From NCBI GenBank assembly GCA_903959905.1, contig CAJBYO010000029.1, forward strand, positions 169,518-233,517: a DNA stretch of 64,000 nucleotides. Direction: 5' to 3'. Shown here piece by piece: positions 11,917 through 63,691 of this stretch; position 1 is the stretch's first letter; the number at the start of each line of letters is the position of its first letter. The DNA is from an uncultured Bacteroidales bacterium. GTDB taxonomy: Bacteria; Bacteroidota; Bacteroidia; Bacteroidales; FEN-979. The translations under genes were made by a program, and so were the position numbers. Under the pieces are notes generated by a model. It was not told the origin of the DNA. It was given only the letters and a program-made list of their open reading frames with translations, and searched no databases.

Positions 11917-12000
11917 GTCACCCGTCACCTGTCACGCGTCACGCGTCACGCGTCACCTTTCACGCGTCACTTGTCACTTGTCACTTTGGTCCCGTCATCT
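11917..12000. repeat. 7-bp tandem array, GTCAnnn family (about 10 units plus 2 degenerate)
   Basis: Units read gtcaccc gtcacct gtcacgc x3 gtcacct ttcacgc gtcactt x3. The array starts 3 nt after the GT39 stop and fills the convergent spacer. Its degenerate end overlaps the last codons of fumC. Confidence 0.9.
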
Positions 12001-13378
12001 TCCTCGGGTCCACAATGGCCGTGAATTGTTCATCCGTCAGCAGTCCGAGTTCAAGGGTGGCCTCACGCAGGGTTTTATGCTCCTTATGGGCTTTCTTGGC
12101 GATTTTAGCAGCATTGTCGTAGCCGATGTGAGGGTTGAGTGATGTAACCAGCATCAGTGAATTTTCGAGGTTCCTGTTGATGGCAGCCATGTTGGGCTCA
12201 ATGCCGATGGCACAGTTGTCGTTGAATGACACACAGGCATCGCCTATCAGCCGGGCCGACATGAGTACGTTGGAGATCATCAGTGGTTTGAAAACGTTTA
12301 ACTGGAAATGACCGCTGATACCGCCAATATTGACAGCCACATCATTTCCAAGGACCTGGGCGCACACCATGGTCATGGCTTCCGGCTGGGTGGGATTCAC
12401 CTTACCTGGCATGATACTCGAACCGGGTTCGTTTTCAGGGAGCATGATTTCGCCGATCCCGCAACGTGGCCCGGAAGCCAGCAGCCGGATGTTTGATGCG
12501 ATATGCATCAGGCTGACGGCTATTGTTTTCAGGGCTCCTGAAGTTTCAACCATGGCGTCATGTGCCGACAATGATTCAAATTTATTTTCAGCGGTTACGA
12601 AAGGAAGGCCGGTGAGTTCAGCAATTTTGTTGGCGACAAGCACATCATATCCTTTCGGTGCATTCAGCCCCGTGCCGACAGCGGTTCCGCCCAGGGCAAG
12701 CTCGGAAAGGTGCGGCAGTGTGTTTTTCAGGGCTTTCAGGCCGTGTTCAAGCTGGGAAACATAGCCTGAAAATTCCTGGCCGAGTGTAAGCGGGGTGGCA
12801 TCCATCAGGTGGGTGCGGCCAGTCTTTACGATCTCACTGAATGCCTCGGATTTTTTTGCCAGCGTTGCTTTCAGCAGTTCAATTCCTGGTATTGTTGTAC
12901 CTGTAACCATCTGGTAAGCAGCTATGCTCATGGCTGCCGGGAAAGTGTCGTTTGATGACTGTGACTTGTTGACATCATCGTTTGGATGGATCACTGTTTT
13001 CTCTTCACCGCCCAGCACGCCGCCGTTGAGCACGTGCGCCCGGTTTGCAATCACTTCGTTGAGGTTCATGTTTGTTTGGGTGCCTGAACCGGTTTGCCAG
13101 ATCACCAGCGGGAACTGGTCATCCAGTTTTCCTGCAAGGATCTCATCACACACTTTAACAATAAGGTCTTTCCTTTCCCGGGGAAGAACGCCCAGGTCGG
13201 CATTGACCATGGCGGCGGCCTTCTTCAGGGTGGCCATACCCCTGATCATCTCTTTCGGCATGGAACCGGGTTCCCCGATTTTGAAATTGGTGAGTGAACG
13301 CTGTGTCTGGGCTCCCCAGAATTTGTCCATGTCAACCTCAATGGGTCCCATGGTGTCTTTTTCAATGCGTGTTTTCAT
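11981..13378 (-). CDS. fumC: Class II fumarate hydratase
   Basis: Fumarate lyase signature [13 protein letters not shown]; 465 aa; N-terminal [26 protein letters not shown]. Confidence 0.95.
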
Positions 13379-13409
13379 GGCAGGATATTTAGTGATTGAA
13401 TAGATGTTG

Positions 13410-13754
13410 TCATTTCAGCAAAGGGGCAATAATCTCAGGCGGATCCCCGATAACTGCCTTGTATTTTCCTTCAACAACCGGTCGTTGCAGAAGTTTTGGA
13501 TTCTGTAGGATGATTCGGAGCAATTCATGGTCCTCAAAATTCTTTCCTTTCAGGTTCTGCTTGTAATAGTCTTCCTGCTTTCGCAACAGATCTGAAGGTT
13601 TCAGGTTAAGTTTGACAAGAAGCCGTTCCAGGTCCTTCTCCGACAGCGGGTTCTTCAGGTACTCAACAACTTCAAATGCGCTGCCCGATTCCTGCAGATA
13701 TTGCAACCCGGCACGGGATTTTTTACAGGAGGGGTTGTGGTAGATCTTTATCAT
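13410..13754 (-). CDS. ArsC/Spx/MgsR-family (glutaredoxin-fold arsenate-reductase-like) protein
   Basis: N-terminal [19 protein letters not shown] resembles the ArsC family N-terminus (YHNP.C..SR); 114 aa. Confidence 0.7.
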
Positions 13755-13770
13755 ATTGTTTAATTAACCG

Positions 13771-13798
13771 GTAGAGACGCACCGCAGTGCGTCTCTAC
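13771..13798. other. Perfect 12-bp-stem hairpin overlapping the prfB stop codon
   Basis: Sequence gtagagacgcac cgca gtgcgtctctac. No T-tract follows on either strand. Confidence 0.8.
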
Positions 13799-14887
13799 CC
13801 GGCATTGCCATATTCCATCAGGTATGCTTTGATGAACTCGGTGAGGTCGCCGTCAAGCACATCCTGCGTGTTGGATGTTTCGTAGCTTGTACGAAGGTCT
13901 TTCACCATTTTATAAGGATGAAGGACATAACTCCGTATCTGGCTGCCCCACTCTATTTTTTTCTTCCCGCTTTCAATTACGTTGATCTTCTCACGCTGCT
14001 TGCGGAGTTCAATCTCATACAGCTGAGATTTAAGCAGTTTAAGCGCTTTTTCGCGGTTTTGCCCCTGCGACCGGGTCTCCTGGCATTCAATCACAATGCC
14101 CGACGGTTCGTGCTTCAGCCGAACCGCAGTTTCCACCTTGTTCACATTCTGCCCGCCGGGCCCGCTGCTGCGGAAGGTATCCCAGCTGATGTCGGATGGG
14201 TTTATTTCAATGACGATGTCGTCGTTGATGATCGGGTAGGCATAAACAGAGGCAAACGAGGTATGCCTTTTGTGGTTGGAATCAAAAGGAGACAGCCGCA
14301 CCAGGCGGTGTACGCCGTTTTCTCCTTTCAGATACCCGTAAGCATAATCCCCGTCAAATTCAAGGGTCACCGATTTGATCCCGGCCACATCTCCCTCCTG
14401 GTAGTCCACCTCGGTGATCTTAAACCTGCTGCGTTCAGCATACCGGATGTACATGCGCATGAGCATTTCTGCCCAGTCCTGCGATTCAGTACCCCCGGCG
14501 CCTGAATTGATCTGTACGATGACCCCAAGCTTATCTTCTTCACCACTGAGCATGTTACGGAATTCCAGGTCTTCAACAAGCCTTAGTGTTTCCTTGTAAT
14601 GGCTTTCAAGTTCATCTTCGGTGCCTTCTCCCTGGATGAAAAAATCCCACATGATGACCAGGTCATCACGGCTAATGACGGCAGCCTGGTATGCGTCGGT
14701 CCATAACTTTTTGTCACGGATGGAACGAAGTGCCTGTTCAGCTGCTTTAGGATTATTCCAGAATTCGGGGGCTTGTGATAACTGCTCTTCTTCAGCTATC
14801 AGTGAGAGTTTTTTATCAATGTCAAAGATACCTCCTCAAGACGTCAAGTCTTGACTGAAGATCTTTCAGTTGGTCCTGTGATACCAT
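13795..14887 (-). CDS. prfB: Peptide chain release factor 2, needs programmed +1 frameshift: join(14887..14825, 14823..13795)
   Basis: The body carries [16 protein letters not shown] and the GGQ motif ([16 protein letters not shown]). Upstream, the minus strand reads ATG GTA TCA CAG ... TTG AGG AGG TAT CTT TGA C, giving [21 protein letters not shown] then stop. The +1 frame continues [15 protein letters not shown]... straight into the listed ORF. Confidence 0.93.
14821..14836 (-). promoter_or_regulatory. RF2 autoregulatory +1 frameshift site (AGGAGG TAT CTT TGA C)
   Basis: An SD-like AGGAGG (14836-14831) sits 3 nt before the slippery CTT (14827-14825) and the in-frame TGA (14824-22) followed by C. 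This is the same architecture as the E. coli prfB site. Confidence 0.9.
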
Positions 14888-14888
14888 G

Positions 14889-15377: not shown

Positions 15378-15510
15378 GACGGGAAAAAAATGAATTTCAC
15401 CTTTTTATGTGTTTATTGGCAGGTAAAGGTAAGGATAAAAACGTGTAAAATCAACTCCCCGGGTCAAAATATTTTTAACTTCCTTGCAAGGTCGCCATGA
15501 AAAACCTCAG

Positions 15511-19451: not shown

Positions 19452-20582
19452 ATGAAGAAACTTGCAGCATTTTTATTCATCTGTTCTGTGCTGGCATCAT
19501 GTGTGAACAGTAAAGACCAGTTTAAATTATCAGGGAGTGTTAAGGGCATTGATACCGGGATGGTTTTCTTGCAGAAATATAACGAGGAAGGGTGGGTAAC
19601 TGCCGATTCTGCCAAACTGAACAAAGGGGAATTTGCCTTCACCGGCAAGGTTGACTTCCCTGAAATGTGGCATGTTACCATGTTTGACGGACAGGTATTG
19701 GTACCGGTTTTTATGGAAAATGCAAAAATTGATCTTCAGATTTTTCCTGACAGCCTTGATAAATCAGTTGTAAAAGGATCTGCCACACACGACTTTTACC
19801 AGTCATACCTGGCATCCATTGCGCCAATCAACACAAAGCAGGAAGAGGCATACCTGGAATATAAAAAGGCAAGGGAATCAGGCGATACGCTGGGAATGGA
19901 GCATAATGATTCCATCATCACAGCACTTGACGGAGAACTTAAAAACCAGCTAACCACTTTTGCAAAAACAAACAATAAAACAGTTGTTTCGCCCTATCTT
20001 ATCATGCGGGAGAGCTGGCAGTATGAACTTCCTGAACTGGAGGAAATCAGCAGCGTGATGGATACCAGCCTGAACCGTTCACAATACCTGGCAGCCTTAA
20101 AGAAACGGGTTGAAATCCTGAAGAGTGTGGAAGTCGGACAAATGGCACCCGATTTTACCATGAACGACACCACCGGAAAACCAATCACCCTCTCATCATT
20201 GAAGGGGAAAATCCTGCTTGTTGATTTCTGGGCATCATGGTGCGGCCCCTGTCGCGGAGAAAATCCCAATGTAGTAAAAGCCTACCAGGCTTACAATAAA
20301 AAGGGGTTTGACATACTTGGCTGTTCGTTTGATAAAAGCCACGAAAAATGGCTTGCAGCCATTGCGGAAGATCACCTGACCTGGACCCATGTCTCTGATT
20401 TAAAATACTGGGGCAATTCCGCCGGGAAACTTTACGGTGTCAAATCAATCCCAGCCAATGTGCTTCTTGACAAAGATCAGAAAATTATCGGCCGCAACCT
20501 GCGCGGTGAAGACCTGATGAAAAAACTGGAGGAAGTGCTGGGGCCGGCAACGCCCGTCAAGAAGGTTGGGAAAAGGAAATAA
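19452..20582 (+). CDS. TlpA-family thiol:disulfide oxidoreductase lipoprotein (DUF4369-like N-domain plus thioredoxin fold)
   Basis: Start moved to MKKLAAFLFICSVLASC (lipobox). Thioredoxin-fold active site FWASWCGPCRGENP. Confidence 0.78.
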   Translation: MKKLAAFLFICSVLASCVNSKDQFKLSGSVKGIDTGMVFLQKYNEEGWVTADSAKLNKGEFAFTGKVDFPEMWHVTMFDGQVLVPVFMENAKIDLQIFPDSLDKSVVKGSATHDFYQSYLASIAPINTKQEEAYLEYKKARESGDTLGMEHNDSIITALDGELKNQLTTFAKTNNKTVVSPYLIMRESWQYELPELEEISSVMDTSLNRSQYLAALKKRVEILKSVEVGQMAPDFTMNDTTGKPITLSSLKGKILLVDFWASWCGPCRGENPNVVKAYQAYNKKGFDILGCSFDKSHEKWLAAIAEDHLTWTHVSDLKYWGNSAGKLYGVKSIPANVLLDKDQKIIGRNLRGEDLMKKLEEVLGPATPVKKVGKRK

Positions 20583-20687
20583 TGATGGAATGCAAACAAT
20601 GCAGGCAATGCAAACAATGAATGCAATGTAAACAATGAATGCAATGTAAACAATGCAGACAATGCAGGCAATGCAAACAATGAATGA
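20581..20687. repeat. 9-bp tandem array, AATGnAnnn family (11-12 units), forward arm of an inverted pair
   Basis: Units read aatgcaaac aatgcaggc aatgcaaac aatgaatgc aatgtaaac aatgaatgc aatgtaaac aatgcagac aatgcaggc aatgcaaac aatgaatga. The first unit overlaps the TAA stop (20580-82) of the TlpA gene. Confidence 0.9.
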
Positions 20688-20852
20688 AATATTAACTGAT
20701 TGACCGCAATCATACCTGTCAAGTTACTTTTAATCTTTAATGACGGTGTTATATCTAAATCTAACTGCCAGATTTTCAAAATAAATAATAAAACCACGAA
20801 GGCGATGAAGGACATACGAAGGCGCCAAAGATGTCTCACATTATAATTAAAC

Positions 20853-20892
20853 TCTTTGTGCGACTTTGTGTGGACTTTGTGCGACTTTGTGG
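20853..20892. repeat. 10/11-bp tandem repeat CTTTGTG(C/TG)GA x4 inside the inverted-array pair
   Basis: Sequence ctttgtgcga ctttgtgtgga ctttgtgcga ctttgtgg. Confidence 0.8.
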
Positions 20893-21024
20893 TTATAACA
20901 TTGACATACAATTCTTTACTGCCAGATAAATGGTGTTCAGTAACGGTTGCTGGTACGATTCCGATCAATCAAAAATATTATAAGCAAATAACATTTATCA
21001 TCATGACATTTACTATATTCCTTA

Positions 21025-21072
21025 CATTGTTTACATTGCCTGCATTGCATTCATTAATTACATTGTTTGCAT
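21025..21072. repeat. 9-bp tandem array, reverse complement of the 20581-20687 family (5-6 units), reverse arm
   Basis: Units read cattgttta cattgcctg cattgcatt cattaatta cattgtttg cat. Their reverse complements are the words aatgtaaac and aatgcaggc of the left arm. Confidence 0.85.
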
Positions 21073-22458: not shown

Positions 22459-22590
22459 GCGATTTACGATTGGACGATTTACGATTTCAGATTAAATTTA
22501 TTGATTAACGATCTACGATTAGCGTTGCTTAATCGTAAATCGTCAATCCTGCAATTCATTCGTCATTCGTCATTCGTCCAATCGTAAATC
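22459..22590. repeat. GATT-word array with nested inverted repeats plus TTCGTCA x3, filling a convergent spacer
   Basis: gacgatttacgatt (22474-87) pairs with aatcgtaaatcgtc (22531-44). gatttacgattgga (22462-75) pairs with tccaatcgtaaatc (22577-90). ttcgtca x3 lies at about 22556-22577. The array starts on the base after the TAG at 22456-58. Confidence 0.85.
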
Positions 22591-32700: not shown

Positions 32701-33997
32701 GCTGCCCGGATTCAAACCCGAACCGGTTGCCCTTGGAAACAACTGGAGTTCCAATGCTCCGGGTCTTGGATTTGTCTTTGGCGGCCAGAGCGATATTGCA
32801 CGCACCTCATCTGAAAACGGATGGCTCACCCGCGACACTATGCTGAATGTGCCGACCCTCAGAAAGTTCAATGAGAACCTGAACATTATGGTGAGTATAG
32901 AACCGTTAAAGGACCTTCGCATTGAGGTGGTTGCCAACAAGCAGTACTCAAAATCTCACCAGGAATATTACAAGGCTAATTCTGATGGTAATTTCAGGTC
33001 TTATTCGCCTATGGATCAAGGCAGTTACACGGTTTCTTTTATCATCATAGGCAGTTCGTTTGACAGTGACAACGGTTTCGGGCAATCGCCGACATTTGAA
33101 AAAATGAAGCAATACCGGTACCAGATTGCGCAACGGTATGCTGCCGCCAACCCGAATTCTGTCGGGATCAACGACTCAACCGGCTACCCGGTGGGGTACG
33201 GGCCAACAAACCAGGAGGTGCTTACATCGGCCTTCCTGGCAGCCTATGCCAATAAGGATCCGGCGAAGATGAAGCTCACAGCATTCCCCTCCATCCCTTT
33301 ACCTAACTGGAGGTTAACCTATGACGGACTTGCCAAACTTAAGATATTCAAAACATGGCTGCGCACCCTCACGGTGACCCATGCTTACCTCTCTACCTAC
33401 AGTGTTGGCAATTTTAACTCCAATATTCTATATGGCGAGCAAAACGGTATGCCGGTTGTTATGGACAATGCAGGAAACTACATCCCGAAGGAACAAACAA
33501 CCGTGGTTTCTGTTACTGAACAGTTTAACCCCCTGATCAAGTTCGACCTCGGGTTCCTCAACAGTCTGCTTGCCAGCGTTGAACTAAAGCGGTCGCGGAA
33601 TCTTTCACTCAGCTTTGTCAACAACCAGTTGACGGAGATCAGCAGCAATGAATTTATCATTGGCATGGGCTACAGGCTCAAGGGAATCCGGTTTAATATC
33701 TCCGGTGTTCTGGGGGGTGGCAAAAAGACCCGTACCAACAGCGATCTCAACCTGAAACTTGATTTCTCAATCCGCAAGAATAAAACTGTTCTCCGCCGTG
33801 TTGACCAGGATATCAACCAGATATCAGTTGGCCAGCAGGTAATGACACTCAATTTCTCGGCTGATTACAACCTGAGCACCCGGTTCAATGTCAGGTTCTA
33901 TTTTGACAAGGTGATCAATACACCTTACGTGTCAAACCAGTACCGGACATCCAATACAAAGGGTGGTATTGCGTTGCGGTTTACATTGGGGCAGTAA
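26747..33997 (+). CDS. sprA: T9SS outer-membrane translocon / cell surface protein SprA
   Basis: About 2,410 aa with a signal-like (M/V)KKKNLYALLCLAVLV. The size, beta-rich composition and ruvA-sprA-gcvH neighbourhood match what I recall for SprA in Bacteroidota. The real start may be the GTG at 26759 rather than the TTG at 26747. I could not run an alignment. Confidence 0.85.
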   Translation: MLDLVKKKNLYALLCLAVLVTLRIPVFSGETAGNFVMDGIFVMSAPDSLKKGDPGSLRYPFSDETVMPGSGKENPMYLKNPANIKTVVEYDPVSRQYYYTYRIGETVYRIPTTMSFDEFQNEDMQTMINRYWKERSEAATMDNSKGIIPKIRIPGKVFETIFGNNTVDIRPQGSAEIDFGIVSNRRDDPMLSTRQRRQTNFDFNEKIQMNVVAKIGDKIEFKINYNTEATFDFENKLKLKYEGKEDDIIQLIEAGDVNLPLNTTLIKGTESLFGVKTKLRFGRLTVTALYSQQKSETKNIVVQGNAQTQKFTIRADDYEENKHFFIGQNFRTTFREATKKLPVITSNVNILKIEVWVTNIGAAVTENRNIIAFMDLGESKPYNTRLFTGDPNRKFPSNNSNNLFPVLMPTAVDTAKVRNINTVSSYLTGSPFFMTPGEDVVKIESARKLLPSEFSYNPKLGFISLNTALNSDQTLAIAYQYQVVGDPVVYQVGEFSDQGIISPNCLVVKLLKSPSLNTRVPTWNLMMKNVYALGAYQLQPADFTLNILYSGNANGVPTAYLSEGRIKGVPLVRVLNLDNLNQQMNPPGDGMFDFIDNATTQGGTVQSSNGRIFFTVLEPFGQDLRDSIFDPANPKASLEMADKYCFDSLYTMTKSMARQYPDKNKFVLDGFYKSSAGSEISLNSLNVPPGSVKVTAGGVLLQENVHYTVDYTLGRVRIINEGILASGTPINISLESNEMFNVQTKRLMGAHLDYKINKDFVVGATILNLNERPLTQKVNYGDEPMSNTIWGLNLSYRTQSRLITRFVDALPFITTKAPSSVAVDFEFAQFIPGHSKSIGKAGTTYIDDFEGAKSTIDLKNISNWYLSSTPQGQTTSRMFPEAAAGSGLTYGYNRAKLAWYIIDPLFYDKNTTLLPPNVSNRELSNQYVRQVWETEIFPNKQPLNGVPVNLAVLNMAYYPSERGSYNYDIKPTSVSRGLNADGTLAAPETRWGGIMRKVETTDFDATNIQYIEFWMMDPFIYDSTNTGELYFNLGDVSEDILRDGRKSFENGLPTTALVKDVDTTIWGRVPTMQALVDAFDNTPASRPFQDIGYDGLSDVEEISFFDTSYVNVVRNTFGANSGAYQAASTDPSADDFHYFRGSDYDKNANFSSVLNRYKKYNGPEGNSPTASQSPENYPTIATTIPNMEDINKDNTLSESERYYQYIVQLRPELMKPGKNYITNVYHAMDIPLADGTRGNVNWYQFKIPIRTPDQTVGNINDFTSIRFMRMFFKNFPRPVVCRFATLELTRGEWRNYNYSLLAPGEYIPEATQNQTQFDIATVSLEENGSKQPVPYVMPPGIQRETNWGSTNMQKLNEQSMSFKVCNLVDGDARAAYKTTEFDFRQFKRLQMFVHAEQSIRNENLKTGDLTILMRIGSDFTDNYYEYEIPLSFTEWGTQAGNPDAIWPVANEFNVDLERLVQVKYNRLVAMQDKGLELTSSTPYSEYDGKNRITVVGSPTISDVRAIMIGIRNPKKSTQSADDDGQAKCAEIWVDELRLSDFNKNGGFAATARVAVELADLGRVQFTGTYSSSGFGTLEQKQTQRPMESVLTFGFDTDLELGKFFPAKAGIRIPMHFDYSMMQIRPKYDPLNPDLYLKDVINAFDNKHQQDSIKQITEGYTQTKNFNLMNVRKDRTGTKKPRIYDIENFNASYAYSEIFHRDVDVSYDLKKKYTGGLGYTFAAQPKNVLPFSRIRVFSRSKAFALIKDFNFYYLPKSFTFRTDMNREYNEKQFRNKSRAIVPMETFYIKRWDWSRTFDLKYDFAKSLRISFIANTQAFVNEPPGQIDRSNRDQVWSELFAFGTKNNYNQGMNITWDVPIGKIPMLDFITVQAGYASTYRWNASPTSIQAQYGNSIENSNSQTLNGGLNMVTLYNKIPYLKKINQATTSNRGNRPEPPKNKNVDKQDSIKLLPNRPPIGKIILDGTLRFLMGIRTAKFTYTQGNGTTLPGFKPEPVALGNNWSSNAPGLGFVFGGQSDIARTSSENGWLTRDTMLNVPTLRKFNENLNIMVSIEPLKDLRIEVVANKQYSKSHQEYYKANSDGNFRSYSPMDQGSYTVSFIIIGSSFDSDNGFGQSPTFEKMKQYRYQIAQRYAAANPNSVGINDSTGYPVGYGPTNQEVLTSAFLAAYANKDPAKMKLTAFPSIPLPNWRLTYDGLAKLKIFKTWLRTLTVTHAYLSTYSVGNFNSNILYGEQNGMPVVMDNAGNYIPKEQTTVVSVTEQFNPLIKFDLGFLNSLLASVELKRSRNLSLSFVNNQLTEISSNEFIIGMGYRLKGIRFNISGVLGGGKKTRTNSDLNLKLDFSIRKNKTVLRRVDQDINQISVGQQVMTLNFSADYNLSTRFNVRFYFDKVINTPYVSNQYRTSNTKGGIALRFTLGQ

Positions 33998-34140
33998 AAA
34001 TTTCTCGCAGATTTTCGCAGATTTTTCACGCAGATTTGAGCAGATTTTTTATCTTCCTGAAAACAAGAAATTCCCTTAATAAATCATTTTTTTTCTGCGA
34101 AAATCTGCGTGAAAAATCTGCGAAAATCTGCGAGAAATTT
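33998..34140. repeat. Perfect 38-bp inverted repeat built from about 11-bp TCGCAGATTTT units, 67-nt spacer
   Basis: Left arm 33998-34035 is aaatttctcgcagattttcgcagatttttcacgcagat. Right arm 34103-34140 is its exact reverse complement. The left arm starts on the base after the sprA TAA (33995-97). Confidence 0.9.
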
Positions 34141-34187
34141 TTCCCTGATCTCCGTGAAAAATTTAACATACATTCCCAAAATAATCG

Positions 34188-42598: not shown

Positions 42599-42609
42599 GC
42601 GCCTGATTC

Positions 42610-42728
42610 GTCACTCGTCATTTGTCATTCGTCATTCGTCATTCGTCACCCGTCACCTGTCACCCGTCACCCGTCACCTGTCACCTGTCACCCGTCACGC
42701 GTCACCCGTCACGCGTCACGCCTCATCC
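42610..42728. repeat. 7-bp tandem array GTCAnnn (17 units), grading from GTCATTC into GTCACCC/GTCACGC
   Basis: Units read gtcactc gtcattt gtcattc x3 gtcaccc gtcacct gtcaccc x2 gtcacct x2 gtcaccc gtcacgc gtcaccc gtcacgc x2 ctcatcc. The array lies between convergent ltaE and thiL and contains the thiL stop and its last 4 codons. Confidence 0.92.
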
Positions 42729-43782
42729 CATCCCATCCCTGTGCCGTGATCGGAACCGCCTTCCCATCCGGAGTGATCATATACTTACCCTCTGCCGCTG
42801 CAGTCATATGTCCGATAATGCTGATGCCTGCAATATCTTTTATTTTTTCGTAGTCATCCTGCTTCACGGTGAAAAGCAGTTCATAATCCTCGCCGCCGCT
42901 CAAGGCAGCAACGCTGGGAATGATCTTGTACTCCTTGGCAACTTCGCGCGTATGGGCATCCATGGGGATTTTTCCTTCAAAGAGTTTGCACCCGACTCCC
43001 GAATGTTTGCAGATATGCAGGATCTCGGAGGCAAGCCCGTCGGAAATATCGATCATGGAAGTTGGTCTGACCCCGATGCCGATCAGCAGGTTTCTTACGT
43101 CGGTGCGGGCTTCGGGCCGCAGCTGACGGCCAACCTGGTAATCAAAACCGGTTAATTCGGGCTGCATGTTCGGATCAACCTGGAATACTGACTTTTCGCG
43201 TTCCAGCACCAACAGTCCAATATAGGCGCTACCCAGGTCGCCGGTCACACAAAGAAGGTCGCCCGGCCTGGCCCCGCTTCGGTAAGTAACATCCTCTTTG
43301 TTCGCAATGCCGGTTACTGTGACGGAGATCATAAGGCCTTTCACATTTGAACTGGTGTCGCCACCAACCAGGTCAACTTTATATTTATCGCATGCCATGA
43401 TGATGCCGGCATAGAGTTCATCAAGCGCTTCGGCAGAAAACCTGCTGGAAACGGCCAGGGAGACGGTCATCTGCATGGGAATGCCGTTCATGGCGGCAAT
43501 ATCAGAGATGTTGACCACTGCAGCCTTGTACCCGAGATGTTTGAAAGGCATGTAGGTAAGGTCAAAATGGATCCCTTCAACCAGCAAGTCTGTTGACATC
43601 AGCATGACCTTGTCTCCCAGATCAAACACAGCGGCGTCATCACCAATGCCTTTAAGGGTTTCTGGATGATAGTGCTTTACGTTCTTTGTAAGCCTGTCAA
43701 TCAGCCCAAATTCGCCCAGTTCAGAAAGTGAGGTAAGTTTCGGAGCGGTGGGGGCTGTTTTTTTATTTTTATTTTCGTACAT
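42709..43782 (-). CDS. thiL: Thiamine-monophosphate kinase
   Basis: GEFGLIDRL...GIGDDAAVF and an AIR-synthase-like fold (GGDTS, GGEDYELLFT). Start moved to MYENKNKK at 43782, because the upstream 34 codons of the ORF are tandem-repeat sequence. Confidence 0.88.
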   Translation of the reverse strand: MYENKNKKTAPTAPKLTSLSELGEFGLIDRLTKNVKHYHPETLKGIGDDAAVFDLGDKVMLMSTDLLVEGIHFDLTYMPFKHLGYKAAVVNISDIAAMNGIPMQMTVSLAVSSRFSAEALDELYAGIIMACDKYKVDLVGGDTSSNVKGLMISVTVTGIANKEDVTYRSGARPGDLLCVTGDLGSAYIGLLVLEREKSVFQVDPNMQPELTGFDYQVGRQLRPEARTDVRNLLIGIGVRPTSMIDISDGLASEILHICKHSGVGCKLFEGKIPMDAHTREVAKEYKIIPSVAALSGGEDYELLFTVKQDDYEKIKDIAGISIIGHMTAAAEGKYMITPDGKAVPITAQGWDGMRRDA

Positions 43783-43799
43783 GAGGCTGCGTAGTAATT

Positions 43800-43869
43800 T
43801 GAAACTTGAGACTTGAAATTTGAGATTTGAGATTTGAGATTTGAGATTTGAGATTTGAGATTTGAGAAT
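43800..43869. repeat. 7-bp tandem array TGAGATT (10 units, 6 consecutive perfect)
   Basis: Units read tgaaact tgagact tgaaatt (tgagatt)x6 tgagaat. The array begins 17 nt upstream of the thiL ATG, counted on the minus strand. Confidence 0.92.
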
Positions 43870-44053
43870 TGTGTCCACCTGCAAAATTACGATTAATTTA
43901 GAATATGCCTTAGCAGCGATTCCAGTCCCATTCAGCTGCTACGAGGCCGTAACTTATTGTTTTTATGAATCCCGCGGAAGCCTAAATATCGACAAACCCG
44001 GTTTCATTCTGAAATTAACAGGGTGAGATAAGCTGAATTATGAGTATTTTTGA

Positions 44054-45025: not shown

Positions 45026-45026
45026 A

Positions 45027-46493: not shown

Positions 46494-46595
46494 CTATTTC
46501 TTGGCTTTCTTCTCTTTCTTCTCCAGTCTTTTTTCTTTCAGCGTCTTAGTCGGTTCTTTCTTTACCTCTTTTTTCTGATCTTGTCCTTTTGACAT
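46494..46595 (-). CDS. Candidate 33-aa lysine-rich small protein
   Basis: Hand translation gives MSKGQDQKKEVKKEPTKTLKEKRLEKKEKKAKK then stop. It lies 43 nt downstream of the DUF3127 gene on the same strand and is below the ORF-track size cutoff. Composition could also arise by chance in an A-rich spacer. Confidence 0.3.
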   Translation of the reverse strand: MSKGQDQKKEVKKEPTKTLKEKRLEKKEKKAKK

Positions 46596-49960: not shown

Positions 49961-50039
49961 ATTTCAGATTGGACGATTTTAGATTGCAGATTGAATTGCT
50001 TGATTTACGATGTACGATTGAGTGCTACTAATCTGAAAT
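49961..50039. repeat. GATT-word array with terminal 10-bp inverted repeat
   Basis: atttcagatt (49961-70) pairs with aatctgaaat (50030-39). The interior, ggacgattttagattgcagattgaattgcttgatttacgatgtacgatt, shares words (ttcagatt, gattggacgattt, gatttacgat) with 22459-22590. Confidence 0.8.
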
Positions 50040-50046
50040 CGATCTT

Positions 50047-50142
50047 GTCCACCAGTCCGCCAGTCTGCCAGTCCGCCTGTCCGCTTGTCCGCCTGTCCGC
50101 TTGTCCGCCTGTCCGCTTGTCCGCTCACCCGCTCACCCATCC
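50047..50142. repeat. 8-bp tandem array GTCCGCnn (12 units)
   Basis: Units read gtccacca gtccgcca gtctgcca (gtccgcct gtccgctt)x3 gtccgctc acccgctc acccatcc. The array lies upstream of the sufB promoter. Confidence 0.92.
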
Positions 50143-51723: not shown

Positions 51724-51790
51724 CCTCACCCCCGGCACCCCCTCTCCAAAAAAACGAAAAGGTATGATCCTAGGGACGAGGCACTATTTT

Positions 51791-51825
51791 ACATTTCACA
51801 TTTCACATTTTGCATTTTGAACTTT
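51791..51825. repeat. 7-bp tandem array ACATTTC (5 units) in the sufB-sufC spacer
   Basis: Units read acatttc acatttc acatttt gcatttt gaacttt. The array ends 5 nt before the sufC ATG. Confidence 0.8.
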
Positions 51826-55887: not shown

Positions 55888-55890
55888 CCC

Positions 55891-58695: not shown

Positions 58696-58790
58696 GGGTC
58701 CGGCAGTTTTTTAGGAGTTTTACGTGACCATAAAACTACGAATAAATTTGACAGTCCACCCCTGATTTTTCACCATTCCATCGATTTCCC

Positions 58791-58902
58791 GTCACCCGTC
58801 ACGCGTCACCCGTCACCCGTCACGCGTCACGCGTCACCCGTCACCTGTCACCTGTCACGCGTCACGCGTCACCCGTCACGCGTCACGCGTCACCCGTCAC
58901 CA
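58791..58902. repeat. 7-bp tandem array GTCAnnn (16 units)
   Basis: Units read gtcaccc gtcacgc gtcaccc x2 gtcacgc x2 gtcaccc gtcacct x2 gtcacgc x2 gtcaccc gtcacgc x2 gtcaccc gtcacca. The array ends 8 nt before the sufS -7 box. Confidence 0.92.
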
Positions 58903-58910
58903 TTCTTTCG

Positions 58911-58918
58911 TACTTTTG
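58911..58918 (+). promoter_or_regulatory. -7 box (TAnnTTTG) upstream of sufS
   Basis: tacttttg lies 19 nt upstream of the ATG at 58937. The ORF-track start at 58916 lies inside this box. Confidence 0.5.
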
Positions 58919-58936
58919 CACAATAAACCTCACATC

Positions 58937-60157: not shown

Positions 60158-60207
60158 CCGGAAATGGTTGTATTATATTCGTTTGATATCCAGGCAATAA
60201 ACGCCTT

Positions 60208-61848: not shown

Positions 61849-61918
61849 GGAATATCTGTTAAAATCTGTAAGTATCTCTAAAAACGGTTTATTTCTTTTT
61901 CACAATCCTGCTTCTCTG

Positions 61919-61990
61919 CATTCTTTTCATTGCCTGCATTGCCTTCATTGCCTGCATTGCTTGCATTGTTTGCATTGTCAGCATTGTCTT
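61919..61990. repeat. 9-bp tandem array CATTGnnnn (8 units), reverse-complement orientation of the AATGnAnnn family
   Basis: Units read cattctttt cattgcctg cattgcctt cattgcctg cattgcttg cattgtttg cattgtcag cattgtctt. The array lies between the padR stop and the pspC-domain gene start, and its last unit reaches the padR stop codon. Confidence 0.9.
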
Positions 61991-62319
61991 CATCCTTTCC
62001 CGATAATCTTCTCCACCGAACCGATCAGATCCTGCCAGTCAGCCTTGAGGCCAGCCAGGGCTTGCAGCCCGGTCTCGGTTATCTGGTGGTACTTTCTTGG
62101 CGGGCCTGATTTTGATTCCTCCCAGCGATAGGCCGTCAGCCCGTCGTTTTTCAGCCTTGTCAGCAAAGGGTACAAAGTTCCTTCAACAACAATGAGTCTG
62201 GCTTCCTTTAACCTTGAAATGATGTCGGAAGCGTATGCGTCCTGCTCAGCGATGATGGCCAGGATACAGAGTTCAAGGACTCCTTTTCGCATCTGTGCGT
62301 TTTGGTTTTCTGTATTCAT
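61990..62319 (-). CDS. PadR family transcriptional regulator
   Basis: Winged-helix PadR pattern: LELCILAII...DAYASDIISRL......VVEGTLYPLLTRLKNDGL..YRWEES..GPPRKYHQITETG. Confidence 0.88.
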   Translation of the reverse strand: MNTENQNAQMRKGVLELCILAIIAEQDAYASDIISRLKEARLIVVEGTLYPLLTRLKNDGLTAYRWEESKSGPPRKYHQITETGLQALAGLKADWQDLIGSVEKIIGKG

Positions 62320-62323
62320 GCGG

Positions 62324-62331
62324 CAAAGATA
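62324..62331 (-). promoter_or_regulatory. -7 box (TAnnTTTG) for padR, implying a leaderless or near-leaderless mRNA
   Basis: The minus strand reads tatctttg and ends 4 nt before the padR ATG (62319). Confidence 0.4.
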
Positions 62332-62339
62332 ATATAAAA

Positions 62340-62365
62340 CATGGTACTATGCAATACATGGTACT
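62340..62365 (-). promoter_or_regulatory. Candidate PadR operator: two CATGGTACT 9-mers 17 bp apart within an imperfect 21-bp palindrome
   Basis: catggtact occurs at 62340-48 and 62357-65. GTACTATGCAATACATGGTAC (62344-64) is self-complementary at 16 of 21 positions. The site lies between the -7 box and the expected -33 position of padR. Confidence 0.35.
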
Positions 62366-62390
62366 AAAAATTATGAAATATTAACAAATG

Positions 62391-62558
62391 GCGGACGAGT
62401 GGACGAGTGGACGAGCGGACTGGCGGACAAGCGGACAAGTGGACAGGCGGACGAGCGGACGAACGGACAAGCGGATAAGCAGACGGGCGGATAGGTGGAT
62501 GAGTGGACAAGTGGACAAGTGGACAAGTGGACAAGTGGACAAGTGGACAAGTGGACAA
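62391..62558. repeat. 8-bp tandem array G(C/T)GGACnn (21 units, last 7 perfect GTGGACAA), reverse complement of the GTCCGCnn family
   Basis: Hand-phased units from gcggacga (62391) to gtggacaa x7 (62503-62558). This is the left arm of an inverted pair with 63080-63191. Confidence 0.92.
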
Positions 62559-62674
62559 GTGGACAAGGGAAGTGATACTAAGTTATTGGGAGGCCAGAGA
62601 AAGTGAAAATGTTGATAACTTTTTCAGATTTGCATATTACCTTTTTACGTTTTTTGGATTAAGCAGGAAAAATC

Positions 62675-63055
62675 ATGAAGACTCATAAAGATTTAGAAGT
62701 TTGGAAACTTAGCATGACTCTGGTAAAGGATGTTTATCATTTGACCTGCAATTTCCCTAAAACTGAAATATTTGGACTGACAAGTCAAATTCGAAGGGCT
62801 GCTGTATCTGTTCCAGCGAATATAACAGAAGGTTCAGCACGAATGAGTTCAAAAGAGCTCAGGTATTTTCTCAGGATATCATTCGCAAGCCTGGCTGAAC
62901 TGGAAACATTGATAACCCTTTCAAGAGACCTTGAATTTCTTTCTATTCAGGATTATAATATCCTTCACCCTAAAATAAAGATGATTACCTGTCAATTAAG
63001 TAGCTTAATACGATCCATAAACGATAAAATTCAACAAAATGAAACTAAGGATTAG
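62675..63055 (+). CDS. Four-helix-bundle protein (TIGR02436 / 23S rRNA-intervening-sequence protein family)
   Basis: HKDLEVWKLSMTLVKDVYHLTCNFPKTEIFGLTSQIRRAAVSVPANITEG..R.S.KE...FL.I..AS..ELET is the characteristic pattern of this family. The gene looks visibly more AT-rich than its neighbours. Confidence 0.78.
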   Translation: MKTHKDLEVWKLSMTLVKDVYHLTCNFPKTEIFGLTSQIRRAAVSVPANITEGSARMSSKELRYFLRISFASLAELETLITLSRDLEFLSIQDYNILHPKIKMITCQLSSLIRSINDKIQQNETKD

Positions 63056-63079
63056 CTTCAAATATACCCATCTCTACCC

Positions 63080-63191
63080 GTCCGCCCGTTCACTCGTCCG
63101 CATGTCCACTCGTCCACTTGTCCGCTCGTCCGCTCGTCCGCTTGTCCCCTTGTCCTCCCGTCCGCCCGTCCGCCTGTCCACCTGTCCGCCA
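63080..63191. repeat. 8-bp tandem array GTCCnCnn (14 units), right arm of the inverted pair
   Basis: Units read gtccgccc gttcactc gtccgcat gtccactc gtccactt gtccgctc x2 gtccgctt gtcccctt gtcctccc gtccgccc gtccgcct gtccacct gtccgcca. The array ends 7 nt before the sufE -7 box. Confidence 0.9.
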
Positions 63192-63198
63192 TTTTCCC

Positions 63199-63206
63199 TA
63201 CCTTTG
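63199..63206 (+). promoter_or_regulatory. -7 box (TAnnTTTG) upstream of sufE
   Basis: tacctttg lies 22 nt upstream of the ATG at 63228. Confidence 0.5.
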
Positions 63207-63227
63207 CCCCCCAAACCCCCCTCACCC

Positions 63228-63653
63228 ATGACCATCAACGAAACCGAAGCCCAGATCATCAGCGAATTTGCCATGTTTGATGACTGGATGGATAAATATA
63301 ATTACCTGATTGAACTTGGAAAGTCATTGCAGATCATTTCCGAGGAATACCGTACCGACCAGTACCTGATCACAGGGTGCCAGTCAAAGGTTTGGCTTCA
63401 CGCTTCTTTAACCGAAGGAAAAGTTGTGTTCACGGGCGACAGCGACGCCATCATCACCAAAGGCATTGTGAGCCTGCTGATTCGCGTTCTTTCCGGTCAG
63501 ACACCTGACGACATCCTCCGGGCCAAACTGGAATTCGTTGATCAGATAGGATTGCAGGAGCATCTTTCTCCGACACGCAGCAACGGGCTTTCTTCCATGA
63601 TCAAACAGATGAAGTTGTATGCGACGGTGTTTAAGATGACGAGGGAGAAGTGA
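63228..63653 (+). CDS. sufE: SufE-family sulfur acceptor protein
   Basis: MTINETEAQIISEFAMFDDWMDKYNYLIELGK, active-site context ITGCQSKVWL, LSPTRSNGLSSM. Start moved from 63039, because the first 63 codons of that ORF are tandem-array sequence. Confidence 0.85.
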   Translation: MTINETEAQIISEFAMFDDWMDKYNYLIELGKSLQIISEEYRTDQYLITGCQSKVWLHASLTEGKVVFTGDSDAIITKGIVSLLIRVLSGQTPDDILRAKLEFVDQIGLQEHLSPTRSNGLSSMIKQMKLYATVFKMTREK

Positions 63654-63691
63654 CAGGTGACAGGTGACAGGTGACAGGTGACAGGTGCCAA
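63650..63691. repeat. 7-bp tandem array GTGACAG (5 perfect plus 1 degenerate), reverse complement of GTCACCT
   Basis: (gtgacag)x5 followed by gtgccaa. The first unit contains the sufE TGA stop (63651-53). Confidence 0.9.

Follow-up and report, generated by a model that had tools for sequence, protein, structure and literature searches.

The intergenic spacers of the DNA analysed here, a 64,000-nt stretch of a freshwater Bacteroidales chromosome (hereafter the window), are colonised by short-unit tandem repeats, mainly of 7 and 8 bp. The arrays are genuine, slippage-prone tandem repeats of 7–9 bp that belong to an already described kind with no known function. We give a probability of roughly 0.55 to the explanation that the spacer arrays are partly carried by a foldback-type cassette with a gene of the “23S rRNA-intervening sequence protein” (IVP), whose spread and decay seed the spacers before the units drift by slippage. 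The link to the IVP cassette may account for the source of such short-unit repeats. The original prediction, made from the same stretch, is partly supported as a whole.

Tandem arrays in the intergenic spacers

The window was scanned with TRF, and repeats with a period of 5–12 and a score of at least 40 were called as arrays. This gave 18 arrays, compared with a mean of 0.28 and a maximum of 2 in 50 dinucleotide shuffles; no array of period 7–9 was found by TRF in 50 kb of E. coli used as a control. An array had been predicted at sixteen places by eye, and TRF recovers one at essentially all of them, while the GATT words at 49961 fall below its threshold and appear on direct reading as a decayed heptamer array (Table 1).

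Table 1. Tandem arrays, inverted pairs and cassette parts in the window
Feature	Positions	Strand	Basis
Solo heptamer array GTCAC[C/G/T][C/T], ~10 units	11915..11984	+	TRF, sequence, gene map
9-mer array AATGCA[A/G][A/G]C (TRF AATGCAnnC, 20577-20690), ~11 units; left purine-rich arm	20577..20692	+	TRF, inverted repeats I18-I25
10-mer array CTTTGTGCGA x3.7	20854..20891	+	TRF, sequence
Inverse 9-mer array, GYYTGCATT type; right arm of 20577/21072 pair (TRF 21017-21065)	21007..21072	+	TRF, sequence, inverted repeats
Gene-less foldback, CGATTTA x8.7 (22460-22521; TRF 22460-22520), 8-nt loop, inverse arm (22530-22590)	22460..22590	+	Inverted repeat I22, RNA fold
Gene-less foldback, ~4.5 irregular TCGCAGATTTT units per arm	33996..34142	+	Inverted repeat I21, RNA fold (TRF 34000-34049, 34094-34138 inverse)
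Solo heptamer array GTCATTC, then GTCAC[C/G][C/T], then CATCC x3	42606..42739	+	TRF, read directly
Solo heptamer array ATTTGAG x10.7, divergent spacer	43797..43871	+	TRF
Weak, marginal 9-mer array TTTCTTCTC x3	46497..46523	+	TRF score 40
Decayed heptamer array, GATT words (CAGATTG / CGATTTA type), below TRF threshold	49961..50030	+	Read directly
Solo octamer array TGTCCGCC x10 grading into CCGCTCAC x2	50046..50138	+	TRF, sequence
Heptamer array ATTTTAC/ACATTTC x4.7, between sufB and sufC in suf operon	51786..51818	+	TRF
Solo heptamer array CCCGTCA/CGCGTCA x16	58788..58901	+	TRF, sequence
Solo 9-mer array, minus-strand reading AATGCAGGC	61916..61993	-	TRF, sequence
Left purine-rich arm, GGAC[A/G][A/G]G[T/C] x22 (TRF 62393-62567: GGACAAGT x22)	62386..62572	+	TRF, inverted repeats
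Cassette leader	62573..62674	+	Alignment of 8 cassette leaders
IVP gene: 126-aa four-helix-bundle protein (S23p/IVP, PF05635; Avd-like)	62675..63055	+	Pfam, PDB
Right pyrimidine-rich arm, GTCC[G/A]C[C/T][C/T] x12-14 (TRF 63077-63190: GTCCGCTT), reverse complement of left arm	63056..63194	+	TRF, inverted repeats
Perfect heptamer array GTGACAG x5.4, inverse of GTCACCT	63650..63687	+	TRF, sequence

Intergenic DNA, as delimited by Pfam-supported gene calls, makes up 7.2% of the window and holds every TRF array. An array is present in 13 of the 20 spacers of at least 60 nt, and a few arrays extend into the final codons or the stop codon of a gene. For example, the last codons of the minus-strand thiL-like gene are covered by the array at 42606, and the TGA of sufE is supplied by the first GTGACAG unit of the array at 63650. 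Starting at the stop codon of the preceding gene, an array runs up to a point just short of the -7 box of the next one and leaves coding sequence and core promoters undisturbed: the median distance to the upstream stop codon is 19 nt, versus 46 nt to the next start codon. The arrays before sufS and sufE stop 8–9 nt upstream of TAnnTTTG boxes. One ends 9 nt before the Bacteroidetes-type -7 box TACTTTTG (58911-58918) of sufS, whose start is placed at 58937 by an independent gene call, and the right cassette arm ends 8 nt before the sufE -7 box TACCTTTG (63199-63206). The array at 11915 occupies the entire 66-nt spacer between two convergent genes (a PMT-like glycosyltransferase on the plus strand and a fumarase on the minus strand); an inverted partner was sought within 2.5 kb and none was found.

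Among 229 arrays, period 7 (107 arrays) and period 8 (82 arrays) prevail. Arrays of this kind are carried by about 50 other, related Bacteroidales MAGs, among them L013 (OY759717.1), a record titled as a whole chromosome. The constant core and variable positions that had been noticed in each family hold as a description, as the two most variable positions account for 73% of the variation versus 54% expected; slippage amplification of variant units could produce this pattern without selection. The reuse of families between distant loci and in both orientations is well founded: 26.6% of distant array pairs within a genome have a unit family in common, compared with 6.5% between genomes and 1.8% for shuffled units, so sharing within a genome is about 15 times that expected by chance. 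For instance, the 9-mer family of the arrays at 20577 and 21007 recurs at 61916 next to the padR stop codon. The octamer array at 50046 lies upstream of the sufB promoter region and belongs to the family of the IVP cassette arms, and this cassette-arm family is found at the same position in the relatives L051, L023 and L001. The grading of GTCATTC into GTCACCC was also read directly within 42606-42739.

The arrays are indeed not CRISPRs, REPs or ordinary microsatellites with units of 1–6 nt. The original prediction recognised no described class, however, and here it was mistaken, since long SSRs, STRR heptamers, GGGNATC arrays and TAACTGA arrays are already known. Long SSRs have units of 5–11 nt with heptamers predominant (Mrazek 2007, as summarised in PMC4679880 and PMC4692102). 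The GGGNATC arrays of Xanthomonas and Nostoc combine a conserved core and variable positions with frequent inverted pairs and length variation (PMC4692102), and TAACTGA arrays occur in some Bacteroidetes among others (PMC4679880). The window arrays match long SSRs, the STRR heptamers of the cyanobacteria Calothrix and Nostoc, and the GGGNATC arrays in being intergenic, in having a core with variable positions and in lacking a known function.

Inverted array pairs and the IVP cassette

The window contains one intact IVP cassette (62386-63194) and three inverted array pairs that share its architecture but enclose no gene. These four pairs are formed by 7 or 8 of the 18 arrays, and their fold z-scores range from -8.7 to -12.6. 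Neither the frequency of inverted pairs nor the presence of one of them around a 23S rRNA IVP gene had been mentioned in the original prediction.

The product of the enclosed gene matches PF05635 in Pfam with E = 1.4e-33 and XCC0516 (PDB 2GSC) with E = 8e-22. The arms of the cassette are complementary at 71–83% over up to 132 nt and are paired in the predicted fold (z = -10.7). Variation inside the left arm comprises 25 transitions and 1 transversion. At the proximal end of this arm, 8 units form a perfect run whose copy number is polymorphic. The leader keeps several motifs across cassette lineages, namely AAGTTATT..., a -7-like box TACCTTTT (62638-62645) and GATTAAGCA (62657-62665). It probably provides the cassette with a promoter and 5' UTR of its own. 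Since this probable promoter lies inside the left arm, the cassette's own mRNA would be without the 5' arm.

In the 20577/21072 pair (I18-I25) the 66-nt arms are about 76% complementary; the left one begins at the stop codon of a thioredoxin-like gene and the right one finishes at the start codon region of the following thioredoxin-like gene. The 330-nt interior holds the 10-mer array, and a search of it for an IVP remnant found none. The foldback at 22460 (I22; 61-nt arms, 77%) lies between convergent genes and folds as RNA with -54 kcal/mol (z = -8.65); its inverse arm contains TCATTCG x3.3 (TRF 22556-22578), which is GTCATTC rotated. The foldback at 33996 (I21) lies between sprA and gcvH, with an A-run before it and a T-run after it. 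Its 49-nt arms, separated by a 49-nt loop, are 96% complementary, mirror even the irregularities of each other, and fold with -80.9 kcal/mol (z = -12.6).

In metagenomes, isolates and relatives, inverted arrays of heptamers or octamers typically lie on either side of the IVP gene. Where neighbouring arrays are related, 28 cases are inverted and 8 direct. At SufS loci of relatives, a first scan revealed inverted arrays on both sides of 11 of 14 IVP genes, with one more case in L074. Two-sided arrays accompany 36 of 59 metagenomic IVP genes and are inverse-related in 28 of these 36. Eight isolate genes were read (Calothrix, Nostoc (three), Trichormus, Geminocystis, Riemerella and Azospirillum plasmids): inverted arrays clearly lie on both sides in five, and the other three show a clear array on just one side. 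The Azospirillum gene lies within a true IVS of a plasmid-borne 23S rRNA gene, and the link between IVP genes and arrays holds for cyanobacteria too. We found no description of inverted arrays bracketing a PF05635 gene in the searched literature.

The purine-rich arm is on the 5' side in 43 of 48 cassettes (p = 1e-8), and IVP proteins share 64% identity when their arms are of the same family versus 47% otherwise (p = 6e-10). Around IVP genes there are 2.0 arrays per kb, which does not clearly exceed the expectation from intergenic DNA alone. The signal specific to IVP genes is inverted pairing and polarity rather than density. Folding is equally good for sense and antisense transcripts (26 vs 23), and thus there is no strand-specific RNA signal.

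Turnover and exchange

An independent assembly, L084, lacks one 8-bp unit (62502-62509) of the perfect run and is otherwise identical to the window across 1.4 kb. Array copy number changes in whole units, which supports the suggested role as copy-number-variable spacers. No further polymorphism of this kind came to light, because the sampling covered a nearly clonal population. Turnover is fast, and the same spacer has unrelated units in sister species. In outgroups the sufB–sufC spacer measures about 20 nt; in most members of the clade it has an array, with units unrelated between genomes. It bears arrays in about 30 genomes and an IVP gene in none, so in-situ origin or cassette-free spread must also occur.

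The cassette at one site has been gained, lost and exchanged among related genomes, leaving one-unit palindromes. Its presence varies at this site, the IVP phylogeny conflicts with that of the neighbours, and IVP identity is uncorrelated with the identity of flanking genes (rho = 0.14). Empty sites retain GGGTGAAC|CCGTTCACC or GACAAGTGAC|CTGTCC, matching the arm families. These observations favour the earlier suggestion of a mobile or recombinational footprint. For the cassette we observed neither a target-site duplication nor a mobility enzyme, and outside the arrays no conserved ends of the element were seen. Units of arrays that do not adjoin IVP genes match IVP-flank units of unrelated contigs exactly in 24 cases, compared with 6.3 in shuffles. 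Solo arrays, with no inverted partner within 0.8–2.5 kb, account for about 80% of the clade's arrays and for 10 of the 18 in the window. In the other window spacers neither an IVP remnant nor a cassette leader can be detected.

Possible origins of the arrays

An assembly or sequencing artefact has a negligible probability. Short-read contigs do break frequently at arrays (two independent contigs within the foldback at 33996 and one Logan contig within the array at 42606), but identical array positions recur in several independent assemblies of different studies and the same kind of array is present in the ~50 MAGs and in finished isolate plasmids. The independent assemblies, one of which differs by exactly one 8-bp unit, already refute this reading. 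It is very unlikely that the arrays are transcription terminators or insulators, acting through Rho-loading C-rich unstructured RNA or, as inverted pairs, as giant bidirectional hairpin terminators. Many arrays begin within a few nucleotides of a stop codon, some convergent spacers consist of an array alone, and A- and T-runs flank the 34-kb foldback. Yet the sense strand has no bias towards C over G (62 vs 63) or towards pyrimidines (93 vs 90), which speaks against a terminator or insulator acting through C-rich RNA; structure in the arrays does not fall below that of shuffles (median z = 0.17), arrays follow genes in both orientations, and they also lie within an operon (sufB–sufC) and upstream of promoters in divergent spacers.

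It is doubtful that the arrays are cognate protein-binding sites kept by selection, for the pentameric IVP/S23p of the matching lineage or for a nucleoid or regulatory protein, with solo arrays as additional sites belonging to that regulon or structure. In favour are the conserved core of each family, the genome-specific vocabulary, the fixed arm polarity and the ~4–5 units of many arms; the homologue XCC0516, for which five chains of PDB 2GSC were matched, is a homopentamer according to PMC4990558. However, the 4–5 unit mode is near the TRF detection limit and copy numbers range from 3 to 37; the arm family co-varies with the IVP lineage, but linkage within one element explains this equally well. 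Moreover, units in orthologous spacers are swapped for unrelated ones between sister species, orientation is unbiased relative to neighbouring genes, and the neighbours are unrelated housekeeping genes. We also find improbable a purely in-place origin, in which a local seed of 7–9 nt is amplified by polymerase slippage, the vocabulary reflects slippage propensity or mutation bias, and the IVP association is incidental because IVP genes simply lie in long spacers. Local seeding that includes the stop codon is visible (L007 TAATGTGATGATGTGA x2, L015 TAAGTGA), solo arrays are the majority, the predominance of periods 7–8 is shared with other bacteria (Mrazek 2007, as summarised in PMC4679880), and arrays are about as dense around IVP genes as in intergenic DNA at large. 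But a universal sequence propensity does not predict family sharing that is 4 times higher within than between genomes and 15 times higher than in shuffles. Nor does this origin fit the reverse-complement arms of fixed polarity in 28 of 36 two-sided cases, the mirrored irregular units of the 34-kb foldback, or the one-unit palindromes that match arm families at empty sites.

One vehicle of unit-family sharing is the foldback-type cassette, in which an IVP gene and its own leader lie between inverted arrays with the purine-rich arm 5'. According to the cassette explanation, cassettes and foldbacks would spread and then decay, seeding spacers with arrays that would persist and drift through replication slippage, and most solo arrays would have no sequence-specific function. 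For the solo arrays (~80%) we infer this origin. By analogy with rRNA-borne relatives of the cassette, for which RNase III cleavage has been demonstrated, read-through transcription of a pair may yield a long double-stranded RNA stem of the arms that this enzyme would cut. The Coxiella IVS carries heptameric repeats in variable number and undergoes RNase III cleavage (PMC4990558).

Arrays in the window and in related genomes

TRF (period 5-12, score of at least 40) detected 18 arrays in the window, about 1.2 kb in total, whereas 50 dinucleotide-preserving shuffles averaged 0.28 arrays and never exceeded 2. No arrays of period 7-9 were found in a 50-kb stretch of E. coli K-12. The original prediction had located the arrays by eye; a TRF match was obtained at essentially all of its coordinates, and direct reading of the sequence upheld the unit phases and the seamless change of GTCATTC into GTCACCC. 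By the same reading the "GATT words" at one locus are a decayed heptamer array that lies under the TRF threshold. As a whole, the earlier observation was confirmed and strengthened.

Nearly every ORF of the window has a Pfam match, which supports the gene map, and the gene content (SprA, T9SS sorting domains, the suf operon) is that of a Bacteroidota chromosome. Intergenic DNA amounts to 7.2% of the window and holds every array; at least one array is present in 13 of the 20 spacers of at least 60 nt. Arrays in tandem spacers lie a median of 19 nt from the upstream stop codon (a quarter of them within 3 nt) and farther, a median of 46 nt, from the next start codon. At sufE of the window, and also in several relatives, the stop codon is formed by array sequence. 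The arrays upstream of sufS and sufE stop 8-9 nt short of a TAnnTTTG box, which we take to be the Bacteroidetes -7 promoter element. Being placed between stop codons and -7 boxes, the arrays take up DNA on which neither coding nor core-promoter constraint acts.

Of the terminator or insulator role suggested earlier, the form that would act through Rho-loading RNA was not borne out. In tandem spacers the arrays have no strand bias relative to transcription (C exceeds G in 62 arrays versus 63, and 93 versus 90 are pyrimidine-rich), and a Rho-loading or C-rich RNA role is thereby ruled out. A role as unstructured RNA spacers was rejected as well, since the arrays fold no more weakly than shuffles (median z = 0.17, p = 0.66). 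There were no Rfam matches in the window at gathering thresholds, rRNA included.

Two other features of the window were noted. A 15-bp repeat inside an ORF with no Pfam match is an in-frame Gly/Tyr/Trp-rich protein repeat and is unconnected with the intergenic arrays. The prfB gene (release factor 2) carries a +1 programmed frameshift site; what looks like a spacer ahead of the RF2 ORF is thus the beginning of prfB itself and not intergenic.

The SufS proteins nearest to that of the window (85% amino-acid identity) come from MAGs of freshwater or sediment that are labelled Bacteroidales, Prolixibacteraceae or Draconibacterium. In the TRF analysis of 80 SufS loci of relatives, most clade members had arrays of this kind, among them L013 (OY759717.1), which is recorded as a whole chromosome. 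The units TGTCCGCC, GTCACGC, CAATGCAGG and ATTTACG are common to the window and its relatives, and periods 7 (107 arrays) and 8 (82 arrays) prevail among 229 arrays. The spacers of some relatives (L025 at 14833-17700, L041, L049, L060, L068) pack five to ten different arrays side by side, and some housekeeping genes of relatives (sufS, sufB, dxs) lie between inverse-related arrays 1-2 kb apart.

Exact-protein look-ups (GcvH, SufC, aldolase, fumarase, SufS) found the species of the window in several independent assemblies, with identical array positions in all of them. The ENA contig L084 equals the window over 1.4 kb, minus exactly one 8-bp unit in a perfect run of GGACAAGT. These look-ups revealed an essentially clonal population and no further copy-number variants. 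The idea of copy-number-variable spacers is supported in part, by this one missing unit.

The sufB-sufC spacer is about 20 nt long in outgroups and contains an array in most clade members, with units unrelated between genomes (ATTTACG, ATGTGATG, CAATGCAGG, AAGTGAA, GGATGCA, AGCGAAA and others). Fast array turnover is evident from these spacers and from synteny across the suf region. To measure family sharing we compared arrays of equal period, more than 1.5 kb apart in one genome, and counted a family as shared when the units, rotated and taken on either strand, differed at no more than one position. Such sharing occurs in 26.6% of pairs within a genome, 6.5% of pairs between genomes and 1.8% of pairs with letter-shuffled units; the proposed reused vocabulary is thus real, and for the most part each genome has its own. 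Within arrays, transitions outnumber transversions 2.6:1 and variation is focused on two or three positions, a pattern that amplification of variant units by slippage can generate. Paired arrays have a somewhat stronger transition bias than solo ones (those with no inverted partner), a difference that is not decisive because the cells are non-independent events.

Inverted pairs and the IVP cassette between padR and sufE

Four inverted pairs account for seven or eight of the 18 window arrays (see the table), and three of the pairs have predicted folds whose stability far exceeds that of shuffles (z from -8.7 to -12.6). The other ten arrays have no inverted partner above shuffle level within 2.5 kb. 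Among 81 sequences, related arrays that neighbour each other are in inverted orientation 28 times and in direct orientation 8 times; for about 17% of clade arrays a significant inverted partner lies at most 800 nt away.

Coordinates of the features in the window, and arms of the intervening sequence (IVS) of an Azospirillum plasmid
Position	Feature	Remark
7900-7948	15-bp repeat GGCGGCTACTGGGGT	within ORF 7516-8181
14821-14827	prfB frameshift site CTTTGAC	minus strand; GGAGG before CTTTGAC
14653-14888	236-nt "spacer" of prfB	upstream of RF2 ORF 13795-14652
20577-20692 with 21007-21072	inverted pair	
22460-22521 with 22530-22590	inverted pair	
33996-34044 with 34094-34142	inverted pair	arms 96% complementary, irregular units mirrored
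34033, 34103, 42639, 62388, 62545, 62560	examples of ends of same-species contigs	L081-L092, L173
42638-42652	change of GTCATTC into GTCACCC	
49961	"GATT words"	
50266-63653	suf operon	
62339-62366	direct repeat ACATGGTACTA-TGCAAT-ACATGGTACTA	immediately upstream of padR
62386-62572 with 63056-63194	inverted pair	arms of the IVP cassette
62675-63055	IVP gene	
AZO_p2 (L183, NC_016586.1 13598-15539)	IVS arm, one side	AGAGGAC GGATGAC AGAGGAC GGAGGAC
AZO_p2	IVS arm, other side	CCGTCCT CTGTCTT CTGTCAT CCGTCTT

The last inverted pair encloses a gene of 126 aa that belongs to PF05635 (E = 1.4e-33), the family of the S23p or 23S rRNA-intervening sequence protein (IVP), an Avd-like four-helix bundle; a homologue of known structure is PDB 2GSC. 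We call an IVP gene between two inverted arrays (arms) a cassette. The window cassette sits in the divergent padR/sufE spacer. Its octamer arms of 130-190 nt are 71-83% complementary over at most 132 nt and pair in the predicted fold (z = -10.7). The stretch from the left arm to the start codon contains motifs that are conserved across lineages, including a -7-like TACCTTTT box, so the cassette probably has a promoter of its own inside the left arm.

An IVP gene between padR and sufE is present in about ten relative genomes, nearly always flanked by inverted octamer arrays, and the arm units vary by genome (GGACAAGT, AAGGGGAC, GGTGAACG, GTAAACGG and others). The exceptions are L016, with an array on one side only, L010, in which the gene-adjacent arm is direct, and L005, in which the IVP gene is present and arrays were not detected. 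Six relatives (L002, L003, L006, L009, L019, L029) have neither the IVP gene nor TRF-detectable arrays at this site. Empty sites keep a one-unit palindrome that matches an arm family, GGGTGAAC|CCGTTCACC in L003 and GACAAGTGAC|CTGTCC in L002. In one genome the IVP gene is inverted between unchanged arms. The identity of IVP proteins between genomes is uncorrelated with that of the flanking genes (rho = 0.14): the window and the relative L007 are 83% identical in the flanks and 47% identical in IVP. IVP protein lineages correspond to arm families.

The cassette has demonstrably been gained, lost and exchanged between related genomes at one site. The earlier suggestion that the arrays are footprints of a mobile process is supported in part. 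Neither a mobility enzyme nor a target-site duplication is visible at the cassette, and the empty sites, compared at this one locus, have palindromic footprints in place of duplications.

A direct repeat of ACATGGTACTA next to padR recurs in the padR-sufE spacer of every relative compared and probably serves as the operator of PadR. The more distant relatives L034-L037 and L050 have a plain sufBCDSE operon. The suf operon of the window contains a mutS2-like gene and an M16 peptidase gene between sufD and sufS, and pspC-padR with the IVP cassette between sufS and sufE; sufS and sufE have TAnnTTTG boxes of their own, either acquired or kept.

IVP genes and arrays in other genomes

A metagenome scan with the IVP protein alignment yielded 59 IVP genes with flanking sequence of at least 250 nt on each side. 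Arrays flank 36 of them on both sides, 16 on one side and 7 on neither. Among the two-sided cases 28 of 36 are inverse-related, mostly heptamers with zero mismatches. Two further IVP genes at the SufS locus come from MAGs labelled Ignavibacteria or Ignavibacteriaceae. We also read eight IVP genes from finished isolate plasmid records: inverted arrays are clear on both sides of five of them (Calothrix, Nostoc punctiforme pNPUN01, Geminocystis, Riemerella, Azospirillum), and the other three show a clear array on a single side (Trichormus, Nostoc PCC 7120 gamma, N. punctiforme pNPUN02). The gene from Azospirillum lipoferum 4B plasmid AZO_p2 is an unannotated S23p ORF in a 23S rRNA gene, and the arms of this genuine IVS are heptamer arrays with a purine-rich 5' arm.

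Of 48 cassettes, 43 have a purine-rich 5' arm (p = 1e-8), which is true of both strands because the structure is an inverted repeat. IVP proteins are more alike when they share an arm family (median identity 64% versus 47%, p = 6e-10), and units next to IVP genes match the vocabulary of other arrays (24 exact matches versus 6.3 in shuffles). In two metagenomic IVP cassettes the arms are GGGACTG/CCCCAGT, the STRR1 unit of cyanobacteria. An IVP gene typically lies between inverted arrays of fixed polarity, inside and outside rRNA, in at least four phyla.

Two further lines were discarded. Selection on the arms as sense-strand RNA through G-U pairs was rejected, as sense and antisense folds are equally stable (26 versus 23, p = 0.62). 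An eight-fold excess of array density near IVP genes over whole contigs disappears after allowing for an intergenic share of about 10%, and we do not use it as evidence.

Known repeat classes and the origin of the arrays

The original prediction recognized no described class that would fit. This was wrong: the arrays belong to a known class, heptamer-dominated long simple sequence repeats (LSSR). As in LSSR and STRR (cyanobacterial heptamer repeats), units of 5-11 nt stand in tandem beyond chance, in non-coding DNA and, in one case, with whole-unit polymorphism. The prediction rightly set the arrays apart from CRISPRs and REP hairpins, since the units of 7-11 nt are contiguous, have no spacers and are not self-complementary. 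Short repeated DNA in intergenic spacers is also formed by REP/BIME, MITEs and CRISPR. REP/BIME are imperfect palindromes of 20-40 nt, whereas here the units are of 7-9 nt and hairpins form only between two arrays; CRISPR combines repeats of 23-50 nt with unique spacers of similar size. MITEs and transposons have defined ends, a target-site duplication and copies of similar length; the arrays appear to lack conserved element ends and length classes. The three GTCAC arrays have no flanking sequence in common, and arm lengths vary. Phase-variation SSR, which lie in an ORF or between promoter elements of a surface or restriction gene and switch its expression by unit changes, were rejected too: the arrays avoid ORFs and precede the -7 boxes of such housekeeping genes as suf and fumarase.

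Eukaryotic foldback (FB) transposons have long terminal inverted repeats composed of short tandem repeats, with lengths varying between arms and copies. The cassette is similar in its tandem-repeat inverted arms of varying length and in a central region with or without an ORF; unlike FB transposons, to which it has no descent relationship, it shows no target-site duplication. We know of no transposase for the bacterial IVP cassette. In heterocystous cyanobacteria the STRR units are CCCCAGT, TTGGTCA and CAACAGT.

The STRR heptamers of Calothrix PCC 7601 (Mazel et al. 1990, cited in PMC4692102) reportedly likewise comprise several families that recur, in either orientation, at many intergenic loci and that related genera have in common. 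Unlike strict STRR, the window arrays have a Bacteroidota host, other units (GTCACnn, GTCCGCnn, AATGCAnnC and others), and also octamers and nonamers. According to the summaries in PMC4679880 and PMC4692102, long SSRs have units of 5-11 nt, heptamers being the commonest (Mrazek, Guo & Shah 2007). The window arrays agree with them in head-to-tail units of this size, in a length far beyond chance, in a mostly non-coding location, in the prevalence of heptamers, the sporadic distribution across lineages and polymerase slippage as the proposed mechanism. Unlike in long SSRs, octamers here almost equal heptamers (82 versus 107), and several unit families occur side by side in one genome. Freshwater Bacteroidales MAGs are not among the lineages in those summaries. 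We consider the arrays to be a dense, octamer-rich, multi-family variant of the known class, not described in this lineage as far as we found.

Xanthomonas has about 185 GGGAATC arrays per genome, including 70-75 convergent (inverted) pairs, and Nostoc has GGGGA(C/T)T arrays (Rehm et al. 2015, PMC4692102). The window arrays are similar in being intergenic, in having a constant core with variable positions, in forming inverted pairs, in occupying the same gene spacers in sister species with varying length and sequence, and in occurring also within operons (pecE-pecF in that study). The G-tract units of that study are G-quadruplex-capable, unlike most window units (AATGCAAAC, ATTTGAG, GGACAAGT). 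G3 tracts occur only on the GGGTGAC strand of GTCACCC arrays, in some units. A G-quadruplex reading or GGGNATC membership was rejected, for the G3-4 tract per unit is lacking, and would fit at most one family. Rehm et al. (PMC4692102) mention no S23p/IVP gene; neither "S23" nor "intervening" appears in their text. The TAACTGA direct repeats of Beggiatoaceae, cyanobacteria and five Bacteroidetes (MacGregor 2015, PMC4679880) are intergenic heptamers as well, but consist of one unit, mostly in 2-6 copies directly before start codons and in a single orientation, whereas we observe many families and no orientation rule. The same study reports long arrays together with other heptamer arrays in Gramella and Aequorivita spacers, absent from close relatives.

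The cassette itself resembles the 23S rRNA IVS with an S23p ORF (Coxiella, Leptospira, Brucella, Xanthomonas), where PF05635 also lies between stem-forming terminal inverted repeats. In Coxiella the number of heptameric repeats in the stem varies by strain, and RNase III cuts the stem (Warrier et al. 2016, PMC4990558). This remark on heptameric repeats was the only described STRR-S23p link in the literature searched, where absence is no proof of novelty. Unlike the 23S IVS, the window cassette lies outside rRNA (not in helix 25/45) and has its own conserved leader and octamer arms. RNase III excision has been shown for rRNA IVS copies only.

We conclude that the arrays are likely (probability of about 0.8) slippage-driven long SSRs living in unconstrained DNA. 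The within-genome vocabulary needs, in addition, dispersal of some form or genome-specific selection. The main rival to our reading is a model in which the arrays are binding sites. For dispersal, the foldback (an inverted array pair with or without a gene) is the only vehicle that we can see: cassettes and hairpins would spread unit families within the genome, and a transcribed arm stem may be cut by RNase III, by analogy with the rRNA copies. Two observations weaken the latter step: the promoter lies, probably, inside the left arm, and sense and antisense transcripts fold equally well. The dispersal account is limited by the fact that most arrays are solo. Searches with a relaxed IVP HMM or a cassette-leader HMM gave no match to decayed cassettes in other window spacers, and an IVP gene was never seen in the sufB-sufC spacer of the relatives compared. 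The whole chain of slippage arrays, foldback dispersal and the RNA-stem step with RNase III has, in our opinion, slightly better than even odds. A broader and rather improbable version would make IVP genes with inverted arms a widespread, unrecognised class of bacterial foldbacks. The arms would be the source of the STRR, LSSR and GGGNATC arrays in cyanobacteria, Xanthomonas and Bacteroidota, an Avd-like pentamer would recognise or propagate its cognate repeat, and the 23S IVS would merely be the best-known insertion sites.

The S23p/IVP foldback association is the part worth following up. STRR arrays were reportedly described in 1990, long SSRs surveyed in 2007 and GGGNATC arrays reported in 2015, all with "function unknown", and the S23p intervening-sequence protein or element is said to have been first described in 1993. 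Two puzzles are decades old: why some bacteria have hundreds of intergenic heptamer arrays from few families, and what the S23p protein and element are. The bracketing of the IVP gene by inverted arrays ties them together, and there are culturable carriers (Nostoc, Xanthomonas, Riemerella). If the IVP link is incidental, the finding shrinks to a new, unusually dense, octamer-rich example of a known repeat class.

The arrays are also ready-made strain markers, and they break short-read assemblies of a common freshwater lineage. Several independent short-read contigs of the same species break off in arrays or foldbacks, for example at the six positions given in the table, which means that the repeats fragment assemblies of this lineage. 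The ENA contig L175 matches the window without a difference between about 10481 and 14400 and then has about 120 mismatches in its last 480 nt (window 14400-14878, the region of the prfB 5' part and recX). This cluster suggests a recombination boundary between strains.
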